Both the position numbers and the translations under genes were made by a program. Shown here piece after piece: positions 32,796 through 44,504 of a stretch of DNA of 59,433 nt. Source of the stretch: Clostridia bacterium (GTDB taxonomy: Bacteria; Bacillota; Clostridia; TANB77; CAG-508); contig CAAEQN010000136.1 of the NCBI GenBank assembly GCA_900758165.1, forward strand, positions 1 to 59,433, in the 5' to 3' direction. A model generated the notes under the pieces. The model did not search any database. It worked only from the letters and a program-made list of their open reading frames with translations, and was not told where the DNA came from. Position 1 is the first letter of the stretch; each line of letters begins with the position of its first letter.

Positions 32796-33314
32796 ATGAA
32801 AAATCTTAAAAACAATAAAGGTATAACATTAGTTGCACTTGTTGTAACAGTTGTTGTATTATTAATTTTATCAACAGTTTCCATAAAACTTACAATAGGA
32901 GGAAATGGGCTAATTACTGAATCTAAACTTATAAAGCAAAACATTGAAGAAGCTGAAAAAGAAGGACAAGAACAAATTAATGCTATGAAAGAATCAGATG
33001 TAAATATATCACAAGATGGAGTAGCTAGCATAAAGGACGAAACTCCTCCAACAATAAATAGTATAGAAATAATAAATATAACAAATAGATCTTTCAAGAT
33101 TAATGTTAATATAACAGAACTTGGAAGTGGGATTGAAAAAGTAGAATATAGTATAGATAATGGTAATACTTATATAACACCAAATTATAACAAAGATACT
33201 TCATATACTTTTACAGGTCTAACTTCCAATACTGAATATAATGTTAAAGTAAAAGCCACAGACAAGAGCGGAAATGAGGCTACAATTAGCAAAACTGTTA
33301 AAACTAAAATTTAA
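32796..33314 (+). CDS. Prepilin-like (class III signal peptide) protein with a C-terminal fibronectin-type-III-like domain
   Basis: MKNLKNNKG/ITLVALVVTVVVLLILSTVSI resembles a type IV (pseudo)pilin leader and hydrophobic helix, but without Glu at +5. The C-terminus (FKINVNITELGSGIEKVEYSIDNG...YTFTGLTSNTEYNVKVKATDKSGN) is FN3-like. Confidence 0.6.
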   Translation: MKNLKNNKGITLVALVVTVVVLLILSTVSIKLTIGGNGLITESKLIKQNIEEAEKEGQEQINAMKESDVNISQDGVASIKDETPPTINSIEIINITNRSFKINVNITELGSGIEKVEYSIDNGNTYITPNYNKDTSYTFTGLTSNTEYNVKVKATDKSGNEATISKTVKTKI

Positions 33315-42619: not shown

Positions 42620-42695
42620 ATTATAGTAAATGTATTGAAAAAGTTTTGATTTAATAGTAATATTATAAGTAGTAAGATATATGGAGGATAATCAA

Positions 42696-44504
42696 ATGAA
42701 AAATATAAGAAATAATAATGGTATTACATTAGTTACTTTAGCTATAACTATTGTTGTAATGCTAATTTTAACAGTAAGTATAACAGCTAGCATGAAGTCA
42801 ACTATAGAAATAAAAAAATATAATAGTGTTAAAGAAGATATTATTTCATTATCAGAGACAATAAAGGAATTTTATTTGGATAATGAAAAATTGCCAATAG
42901 ATAGTAGCAAAGTTTATAAGTTATCTGATTATGGCGTTCCAACTAAAGATATAAATCCAAATGATTCTAATGACTATTATAGAATTGATATAAGCAATTT
43001 TTCAGAAATTGAACTAAACAATGGTGAAAATAATAACAATGAAAACAACCAAGATACAGACGATATGTATGTTGTAAACGAAAAAAGTTTAACAGTATAT
43101 TACTTAAGAGGAGCTGTGCTAAATGGACAGAAACATTATACAATAGTAGATGATTTTTCAGGAGGAGCGTTTGCAGAAGACTATTATTCTGAAGCAAAAC
43201 TACCATTAATGTCAGTAGTAAAACTAGAAAGTAATGGAAAAAATAAGAGTCTAGCTTGCACAGGGGACACTGTAACATTAAAAATGCTTACAAATTATGA
43301 ACTAGACACAAAACCTCAAATTACAATAAATGGAGAAAGTGTAACAGCAACATGGAATGGTCTAATAGGAACAGCAACATACACAATTCCTTATAAAACA
43401 GACAATTTAAAATATGGAGACAAAGTTAAATTTAATATATCTAATTATAATTGTACTTTAATAAACAAATCTGGAGAAAGTACTGTAAAAGAAGGAGAAG
43501 AAATAACAGACGTTTCTTTTGGAAAAGGAGTTACTAGATATGCTGAAACATTAGTACAAGCCTTTAAAGCTGGGAATTTAAATATTGGAGATTATGTAGA
43601 TTATAACAAATATGTAAATGAAAGTAATACTTATACTAGTAAAGTAGATCAAAATGGATGGGCAGACCAAACATATACAGCAACACAAGAAACGAGTTGG
43701 AGAGTTTTAGGATTAAATAAAGCTAAAAATCAATTAATCTTAATATCAGGAGATCCAATAGCGAAAAACATGAACACGAGTTCGGCAAATGATTGGGATA
43801 AAAATCCATACTTATATATAAAAGGTGCTTATGGTTATTTAAATTGTATAGAAATTCTAGATGGAATATCTGGAATATATAGCACAAGTTTAGGAACAGC
43901 TAAAAGTTTAACAGCAAAAGAAATAAACAGATTATTAGGAGTAACAGTAGATAAAGAAAATAAAAAAGTATATGTAAATACAGCTCCAGATACAAATATA
44001 GACCAATGGAAAGCATTAGGAAATACATACACATATCAATCAACAGATTATACCCCAGAAAGTTATATAAATAATAAAACAACTGTAGACACAAGTAAAA
44101 CACCATCAGTAACATTAGATTCATATTATTATAGTTCGGGGAGCCTAACAATTGATGACACATTAAAAGAAATTTTGTTTAGCAAAACAACTTCAAGCGA
44201 CAAATTTTCAAAAGCTTACTGGCTAGCTTCGCCTGGTGTTGGCGCTAACGAGAGTTATGCTTCCTTCGGTCCTGGATTTGTACGTACTGGCGATGTTCGT
44301 GAGGGTGGCTACGCATTATTCGACTCAAAAGGTCGCTGGCTTACTGGTAGGTTAGGGGTCCGTCCTGTAGTTTATCTAAATTCTGAAGTCTCTGTTGATG
44401 ACTTGCAAAAAACAGAAGCAGTTACAGACACATGGAATTATGATAACTCAAATCCACATGTAGCAAATGGAACTAAAGATAATGGATTAGCAGGAATTCG
44501 ATAG
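42696..44504 (+). CDS. Large prepilin-like surface protein with a C-terminal YWLxSP...GVRPV (DUF1566/DUF6273-like) domain
   Basis: MKNIRNNNG/ITLVTLAITIVVMLILTVSI leader and helix, paralogous to 32796. The start is moved to ATG 42696 because the ORF-track ATG at 42681 contains the GGAGG SD. The C-terminus reads YWLASPGVGANESYASFGPGFVRTGDVREGGYALFDSKGRWLTGRLGVRPVVYL. Confidence 0.6.
   Translation: MKNIRNNNGITLVTLAITIVVMLILTVSITASMKSTIEIKKYNSVKEDIISLSETIKEFYLDNEKLPIDSSKVYKLSDYGVPTKDINPNDSNDYYRIDISNFSEIELNNGENNNNENNQDTDDMYVVNEKSLTVYYLRGAVLNGQKHYTIVDDFSGGAFAEDYYSEAKLPLMSVVKLESNGKNKSLACTGDTVTLKMLTNYELDTKPQITINGESVTATWNGLIGTATYTIPYKTDNLKYGDKVKFNISNYNCTLINKSGESTVKEGEEITDVSFGKGVTRYAETLVQAFKAGNLNIGDYVDYNKYVNESNTYTSKVDQNGWADQTYTATQETSWRVLGLNKAKNQLILISGDPIAKNMNTSSANDWDKNPYLYIKGAYGYLNCIEILDGISGIYSTSLGTAKSLTAKEINRLLGVTVDKENKKVYVNTAPDTNIDQWKALGNTYTYQSTDYTPESYINNKTTVDTSKTPSVTLDSYYYSSGSLTIDDTLKEILFSKTTSSDKFSKAYWLASPGVGANESYASFGPGFVRTGDVREGGYALFDSKGRWLTGRLGVRPVVYLNSEVSVDDLQKTEAVTDTWNYDNSNPHVANGTKDNGLAGIR

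Follow-up and report, generated by a model that had tools for sequence, protein, structure and literature searches.

A probable remote target gene of a chromosomal diversity-generating retroelement in gut Clostridia, with a variable region that appears fixed and drifted from its template

Contig CAAEQN010000136.1 of a Clostridia bacterium (assembly GCA_900758165.1) was analyzed as one stretch of 59,433 nucleotides (nt), called the window below; the question it raises is why a short patch inside one of its genes departs so far in base composition from everything around it. Scanned in sliding segments of 159 nt, the window averages 27.4% G+C, and positions 44214-44372 reach 52.8% G+C and 15.1% A, making this both its most G+C-rich segment (z = 4.7, with a standard deviation of 5.4% among segments; the second-highest peak is 42%) and its most A-poor one (the runner-up has 24% A). 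An earlier note, made from the letters alone, had counted by hand 33 and 32 G+C in the 60-nt lines 44221-44280 and 44281-44340; our recount gave exactly these numbers, and only three of the 990 such lines in the window hold at least 30 G+C, two of which are the patch lines. The peptide quoted there and the in-frame position in an AT-rich gene were also correct, the patch lying within an open reading frame (ORF) of 607 amino acids (aa) at 42681-44504 on the forward strand. Its codons are frequently NNC or NNT, and the peptide they encode is rich in Gly, Ala, Arg, and Pro; the amino-acid content does not by itself account for the shift in composition, since the third codon positions shift too (36% G+C and 17% A in the patch vs. 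14% and 49% in the remainder of the gene).

In a diversity-generating retroelement (DGR), RNA of a template repeat (TR) is reverse-transcribed with random misincorporation opposite template adenines, and the cDNA replaces the homologous variable region (VR) of a target gene. We propose that the patch is the VR of a remote DGR target and that it has become fixed and has drifted from its template in the lineage of the window, a reading to which we assign a probability of about 0.8, with the figure referring mainly to the origin of the patch. That the patch is a VR by origin we regard as close to certain; that it is not currently diversified in this lineage we consider reasonably likely. The features on which the argument turns are the following:

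42681..44504, forward strand: target gene (ORF), encoding a type-IV-pilin-like surface protein of 607 aa.
44220..44370, forward strand: VR, the G+C-rich and A-poor patch, from a 151-nt alignment to the TR (reference copy at 10004-10154 of contig L009).
44241..44348, forward strand: span with the 16 codons of the diversified residues, each AAC or AAT in the TR, from the codon table.
44350..44370, forward strand: G+C-rich 3′ end of the VR, resembling an initiation of mutagenic homing (IMH) site; TR/VR homology stops exactly after it.

The limits 44214-44372 given in the earlier note coincide with the composition peak; the true unit, as defined by homology to the TR, is the 151 nt at 44220-44370.

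The note had also reported no reverse transcriptase (RT), Avd, or template repeat in the window, and this was borne out: the 59 kb contain no RT or Avd, and scans for repeats and for the {VR base or A} pattern found no second copy of the patch, only A-rich noise. The TR was found with a predicted peptide carrying asparagine at each variable codon, which was run against a protein collection and retrieved 46 short ORFs of 56-91 aa (the best 94% identical), sitting immediately after a bAvd gene and beside an RT of DGR type. This TR (TGGCTAGCTTCGCCTGGTGTCAATGCTAACGAG...CGCCCCGTAG, 151 nt) is identical or 1 nt different in 13 contigs, which carry three TR alleles 1-2 nt apart. Of its 39 adenines, 32 fall within 16 AAC/AAT codons, and among the 34 scaffold codons the third base is T in 13, C in 10, G in 8, and A in 3. 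The cassette runs in the order cis pilin-like target (454 aa), MSL, bAvd, TR, and RT, with a second MutS_I gene and a DUF6809 gene beyond the RT on the opposite strand; two MutS_I-domain (MSL-like) genes flank the cassette. The bAvd protein (118 aa) matches PF22296, with an NF033474 DivGenRetAVD match (E = 5e-12) below the curated cut-off, and the RT, 205 nt downstream of the TR in L009-L020, is a 315-aa RVT_1 protein with the motif IGNMTSQ. The cassette lies between PcrA ... HTH on one side and HTH-M23-MecA-RadC-MreBCD-PBP2 on the other, a setting unrelated to that of the target gene in the window (M23-M50-target-DUF4153-tdk-uvrA); it occupies a different chromosomal locus from the window gene.

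Comparison of the VRs with the TR revealed mismatches that concentrate at template adenines in both the adjacent (cis) and the remote (trans) targets. Seven cis VRs have 16-25 mismatches each, all of them at TR adenines (16/16 to 25/25). The cis VRs of L015 and L016, scored against the common TR, have 26 and 22 mismatches, 24 and 20 of them at TR adenines, and one of the two non-adenine sites in each is a single-base difference of that contig's own TR allele. Among the orthologues of the window gene, L001 has 19 mismatches, 19 at TR adenines, and L002 has 18, of which 17 are at TR adenines. In the 10 VRs other than that of the window, TR adenines are replaced by G 99 times, by T 86 times, and by C 17 times, and 188 are left as they were. 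The cis VRs are 17-27 nt away from that of L009, compared with only 1-17 nt over the 500 nt downstream; in the four contigs closest to L009, this downstream stretch differs at 1 nt. The confinement of cis and trans mismatches to adenines, together with the turnover of cis VRs, shows that the DGR is active and that the orthologues of the window gene are its second, remote target. The gene at 42681-44504 is very probably a remote (trans) target of a chromosomal DGR, as the earlier note had supposed in suggesting a remote target or a possible orphan VR: a TR with AAY at the variable codons, a bAvd gene, and an RT lie at another locus, and the counts in L001 and L002 (19/19 and 17/18 at TR adenines) support it further.

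Syntenic orthologues with 100, 95, 91, and 85% identity came out of a protein search, along with a large set at ∼52%. Among the orthologues the scaffold of the patch is fixed (YWLASPGV.A.E..A.FGPG.V..G.V.EGG..LF.S.G.W....LGVRPV) and the differences lie at discrete positions; variability in aligned homologues, a check proposed in advance, maps to specific codons, namely those with AAC or AAT as their TR counterpart. The window has these 16 codons as GGC AAC TAT TCC TTT CGT ACT GAT CGT TAC GCA GAC AAA CGC CTT GGT, and across the 10 other VRs each encodes between three and eight different amino acids. The patches of L001 and L002 differ almost only at codon positions 1 and 2. Patch DNA diverges from that of the window by 23% in L001, 25% in L002, and about 36-38% in L003, compared with 1.9, 5.4, and 9.4%, respectively, for the remainder of the gene. 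At the species level, VR divergence is 23-38% vs. 0-1.4% for the backbone, and cis VRs vary between contigs as well.

The VR of the window itself has 39 mismatches to the TR, 23 of them at TR adenines; that is, 23 of 39 adenines are changed, vs. 16 of 112 other positions (Fisher p = 1.9e-7). This imprint indicates that the window VR was probably written by a DGR at some time, although it is not a clean copy of the common TR. The expected second copy, with mismatches enriched at adenines and located beside an RT, was found in other contigs of the species group, with the qualification that the window VR has 16 differences at non-adenine sites. Fourteen of these are at third codon positions and 13 are changes from G or C to A or T. 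Six of them, all silent, fall in the final 21 nt, which read GGCTGGGTGTTCGCCCCGTAG in the TR, in the cis VRs, and in L001 and L002, but GGTTAGGGGTCCGTCCTGTAG in the window; non-adenine changes affect 6 of 20 sites in this 3′ end vs. 10 of 92 elsewhere (p = 0.04). By analogy with known systems, the G+C-rich 3′ end of the VR may act as the IMH. At changed TR-adenine sites, the window VR has C in 7 of 23 cases vs. 17 of 202 in the 10 other VRs, and three of its changes to C give Arg CGN codons.

Variation confined to the patch had been anticipated within populations; among the contigs of the window lineage read as DNA there was none. These ten contigs (L021-L030) show 0 differences over the 151 nt of the VR, with one to three single-nucleotide polymorphisms (SNPs) in the rest of the gene. 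The exact protein (P0169, the 602-aa product of public gene calls, which begin at M6, position 42696) is encoded on at least 24 contigs, drawn from several studies of which at least three are pig-gut metagenome sets. The window VR is therefore best read as locked or fossilising.

The VRs of the orthologues can be arranged in a series of decay. Those of L001 and L002 have 0-1 non-adenine mismatches and 53-55% G+C, the window VR has 16 and 53% G+C, and that of L003 has 37 plus an indel and 38% G+C; members of the L003 cluster differ by conservative single residues (V/I, V/A, S/A, K/R), not by whole-codon rewrites. In a species whose target is 52% identical (a 603-aa homologue at 3001-4812 of L152-L155), the patch is unalignable to the species' own TR (L151), which still matches its cis VR. 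This patch is invariant across samples and has 45% G+C and 21% A, vs. 30 and 46% for the rest of the gene; it looks like a fossil VR. The L152-L155 contigs come from an abundant gut species, which one source labels “Clostridium sp.” As far as these sequence comparisons go, the series supports drift after homing had stopped.

Several observations count against a frozen VR written from the common template. The cassette lies outside the 59-kb window, and the TR is known from other contigs of the species group. The 16 non-adenine mismatches depart from a strict pattern of A-to-N changes only, when scored against the only TR found. The roughly 50 codons of the VR have 14 third-position differences, whereas the backbone has none from L001; with so much silent divergence, the window allele must either be old and have been moved by recombination or have had a different TR as its template. 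The contigs with the frozen VR are closely alike, so clonal spread contributes to the invariance. Finally, a G+C-rich inverted repeat 3′ of the VR was not found by DNA folding of the VR end and its flank in the window, L001, L009, and L003 (z = 0.25-0.64 vs. shuffles); only 34% of DGRs have such a repeat (PMC5758913), so its lack is not disqualifying.

The alternative that survives best, which we nevertheless consider improbable, is that the gene is an active remote target served by a lineage-specific TR allele, or by a second DGR, that carries the 16 scaffold states of the window. Every difference between VR and TR would then be at adenines, and the invariance would come from a clonal sweep in the recent past or from a tightly regulated DGR. 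The 14 of 16 non-adenine differences at third positions, with scaffold residues unchanged, are what a co-diverged TR would give; the contigs with the window allele are only one to three SNPs per gene apart, and DGR activity can be conditional (bioRxiv 10.1101/2024.11.15.621889). However, the TR is identical or 1 nt off in 13 contigs, including cassettes about 2% different elsewhere, and the common TR serves both L002 and L001, whose backbone is identical to that of the window. Neither the members of the TR-ORF cluster (n = 3) nor the TR alleles of the 13 contigs have states of the window type, and no pattern of the fitting {X or A} form has a match in 185,579 species-representative genomes. 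Moreover, cis VRs vary between contigs that have nearly the same TR and RT beside them, whereas the window VR never varies.

Much less probable still is an origin of the patch without any DGR, by import from a homologue of higher G+C content or as a forced consequence of its amino acids. In its favour, the module around the patch is demonstrably a mosaic, no other part of the locus has diverged, and the patch does encode many Gly, Ala, Arg, and Pro residues. Against this, all homologues found come from genomes of ∼27-31% G+C, the sole G+C-rich relative being the TR itself, and third-position A falls from 49 to 17%, which amino-acid content does not explain. TR adenines are enriched eight-fold among the sites that differ from the TR, which contradicts a non-DGR origin, and the variable codons, of the form NNC or NNT, coincide in position with the AAC and AAT codons of the TR. 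An overlap of the patch with a structured RNA, or with some other nucleic-acid element that constrains its composition, is hardly credible, the compositional anomaly being all that speaks for it: no Rfam family reaches threshold near the patch (the only Rfam match of the window is a tRNA), the VR end and flank fold no better than shuffled sequence (z = 0.25-0.64), no repeat was found in the window, and VRs are hypervariable.

Returning to the proposed reading of a remote and now frozen VR, the part of the gene surrounding it has a history of its own:

43546..44496, forward strand: C-terminal module of about 318 aa, common to the cis target gene of the DGR (blastn vs. L009 8158-9105, 85% identity).

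Over 21.8 kb, L001 and the window have 68 differences, all at 43548-44372, and the other 20.9 kb are identical; L002 is 99.3% identical to the window over the same length, with nearly all differences within the module. Relative to the window, L002 and L003 diverge by 12-18% in the module, by about 25-38% in the patch, and by 0.1-1.4% in the backbone. Outside the module the strains (L001-L003) are 99-100% identical across the 21.8-kb locus; the module alone has diverged, and the diverged block coincides with the part homologous to the cis target (43546-44496, 85% identical). In the comparison of L001-L003 and L009-L015 it is a mosaic of cis and trans segments: for example, L002 at 43701-43850 is 97% identical to cis alleles and 83% to the window. 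This pattern of identity suggests that gene conversion between the cis and trans paralogues shuffles the module, which appears to be a hotspot of allelic divergence and of such conversion. Of the recombination that the earlier note had offered as an alternative, then, the mosaic module bears out a part. Judged from these alignments, the window allele would have to be older than its backbone, and its silent differences would reflect either drift after homing ceased or inheritance from a donor lineage with a diverged TR.

Upstream of the VR there are two further clusters of hypervariable codons, at ∼44003-44015 and ∼44118-44145 (NID-QWKA and LDSYYYSSGS in the window), which also vary between alleles of the cis target that have otherwise identical TR and RT. 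A second TR covering these codons was sought and not found; the clusters could reflect selection on loops near the VR, or conversion tracts.

The N-terminus of the target protein has one more feature:

42720..42776, forward strand: prepilin-like N-terminal hydrophobic segment GITLVTLAITIVVMLILTV, from the sequence (family consensus GITLIALV.TI.VLLILAG).

The N-terminus of the window protein reads G-ITLVTLAITIVVMLILTV, with the Glu at +5 absent, and in the full-length AlphaFold2 (AF2) model residues 14-68 form an N-terminal helix, with beta domains after it. The match to the GspG pseudopilin family TIGR01710 is weak (E = 0.002, far below the family cut-off), and PF07963 (N_methyl) matches 26 of 98 family members, the window protein itself being unmatched; no pilus machinery genes were seen near the target gene. 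In motif and predicted helix the N-terminus appears type-IV-pilin-like. At 50% identity, the family of the C-terminal module comprises 417 clusters. Pfam assigns no family to the window protein at E <= 1 and only N_methyl to the 98 family members, and searches of PDB and NCBIfam sequences gave no match for the VR domain. The AF2 model of the module, built from a 98-sequence alignment, has a pLDDT of 97.2 and a pTM of 0.94, and Foldseek found no neighbour for it in PDB, which covers the DGR variable proteins of solved structure (best E = 1.4), and none in BFVD (best E = 0.011, probability 0.25). The full-length model is poor in its C-terminal half (pLDDT < 50), and its Foldseek matches are weak immunoglobulin-like ones. 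A C-type-lectin, FGE-sulfatase, or DUF1566 fold (PF07603, PF03781; Mtd, TvpA) is not supported, with no profile or structural match; only the short motif YW.AS...VRPV recalls families of the C-type-lectin/DUF1566 type. The C-type-lectin/DUF1566-type fold expected in the earlier note therefore found no backing, either from Pfam or from the structure prediction it had called for, in which a model with a pLDDT of 97 has no PDB neighbour and the C-terminal region shows no recognisable fold of this kind.

Two other proteins may be mentioned here. A second small pilin-like ORF (172 aa, N-terminus KGITLVALVVTVVVLLIL) lies at 32796-33314 of the window on the forward strand and has no VR-like patch; its orthologues match DUF7743/fn3. 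P0005 (356 aa, on a 40.7-kb contig) is an allele of the window gene in which 321 of the first 322 residues match and 34 unrelated ones follow, which probably reflects a frameshift or a truncation close to where the C-terminal module begins.

The synteny of the cassette is also kept in L151 (GCA_046959195.1), from the species whose target is only 52% identical, which points to an old element of cellular rather than viral kind; IMG/VR has no exact match to a 42-mer of the TR. The degenerate {X or A} TR pattern likewise has 0 matches in IMG/VR and 0 in the 185,579 species-representative genomes (GTDB), and because this pattern does match real TRs and VRs, the cassette of the species presumably lies outside the GTDB representatives. 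In metagenome contigs the pattern, which also fits poly-A, returned 120 loci, each at least 96% A. The GTDB representative genomes hold three related loci at ∼55% identity, in metagenome-assembled genomes labelled “uncultured Clostridia bacterium.” The arrangement varies between lineages: at 6504-7867 of L151 (JBKUPU010000001.1) there are two genes between the TR and RT, one matching the AbiEii toxin family, and in another lineage (L005-L008) the RT is on the strand opposite the TR and the cis target is split around the VR into two ORFs (L005 2052-3011 and 3262-3498). Most cassette contigs (L010-L020) break within the cis target, near the VR; the breaks fit assembly collapse on the VR/TR and paralogue repeats, which would be a practical reason for the under-detection of such systems.

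The course of events we propose is that a cassette at another locus would rewrite both its cis target and a remote gene of the window type in sister strains. Its TR packs adenines into 16 AAC/AAT codons and avoids A in the scaffold codons, and mutagenesis converts about half of the remaining adenines, chiefly to G or T; the avoidance of A in the scaffold and the conversion of A to G or T would together produce a VR with ∼15% A and 53-55% G+C in a genome of 27% G+C. In the window lineage the VR would no longer, or only very rarely, be rewritten, and would have gathered or inherited 16 non-adenine differences from the TR, six of them in the 21-nt IMH-like end, which is expected to be needed for homing. 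The encoded binding surface is predicted to be locked and maintained by ordinary purifying selection, and the surrounding module would in addition have been reshuffled by gene conversion with the cis paralogue. A wider form of this scheme, which we put forward tentatively and think unlikely as a whole, would have two tiers of diversification, in which the DGR rewrites the cis and remote paralogues, gene conversion shuffles the 950-nt module, and erosion of the IMH end locks VRs; a useful specificity, once locked, may escape mutagenesis and then be held by purifying selection, and the VR-bearing domain of the pilin-like adhesin may, going by the model, have a fold absent from solved structures. 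If true, this scheme would make visible a decay series that begins with fresh VRs and ends with fossil ones, still set apart by their composition in different species.

DGRs with remote targets, and DGRs with MSL+Avd accessory sets, have been described before (PMC5758913; bioRxiv 10.1101/2024.11.15.621889), and the system described here is a canonical Avd+MSL-type DGR with one adjacent and one remote target, a kind already known. As with Treponema denticola TvpA and other remote-target DGRs (PMC5758913), there is one chromosomal, non-phage cassette with adjacent and distant targets, and the VRs differ from the TR only at adenines and lie near the C-terminus of a surface protein; unlike them, the targets here are type-IV-pilin-like and belong to uncultured gut Clostridia, the VR module has no FGE or C-type-lectin match, and the window copy is invariant with 16 non-adenine differences. 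A small MutS_I protein (Msl) and Avd adjoin the TR and RT in Legionella pneumophila and Bacteroides DGRs too (PMC5758913; bioRxiv 10.1101/2024.11.15.621889), whereas here two MutS_I-domain genes flank the cassette. The Bacteroides targets are likewise pilus adhesins of gut bacteria, in that case Type V pilus tip proteins with C-type-lectin VR domains, in contrast to the prepilin-like (type IV class) N-terminus of the pilin-like proteins here. With the prototype of Bordetella phage BPP-1 (mtd/avd/TR/brt), the system shares adenine-specific mutagenesis, the AAC/AAT codon design of the TR, and a G+C-rich 3′ stretch of the VR common to the TR, after which homology ends (IMH-like); it differs in being cellular, with no exact IMG/VR match, in a target that is no tail fibre, and in having no inverted repeat after the VR. 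What is less ordinary is the pilin-like target with an unmatched fold, the exchange of modules between cis and trans copies, and the frozen, partly eroded VR of the window.

Large metagenomic surveys of DGRs state that remote targets escape them because the VR and RT do not fall on the same contig (PMC8144416). Here the whole system was recovered from the composition of a single gene and a subsequent peptide query with Asn at the variable codons, which offers a practical route to orphan VRs. A type-IV-pilin-like surface family of uncultured pig and human gut Clostridia joins the list of DGR targets, with a VR domain that is confidently modelled and yet has no structural neighbour. The presence of fresh, frozen, and fossil VRs at one site could show how a DGR target is switched off and how long the compositional scar lasts.

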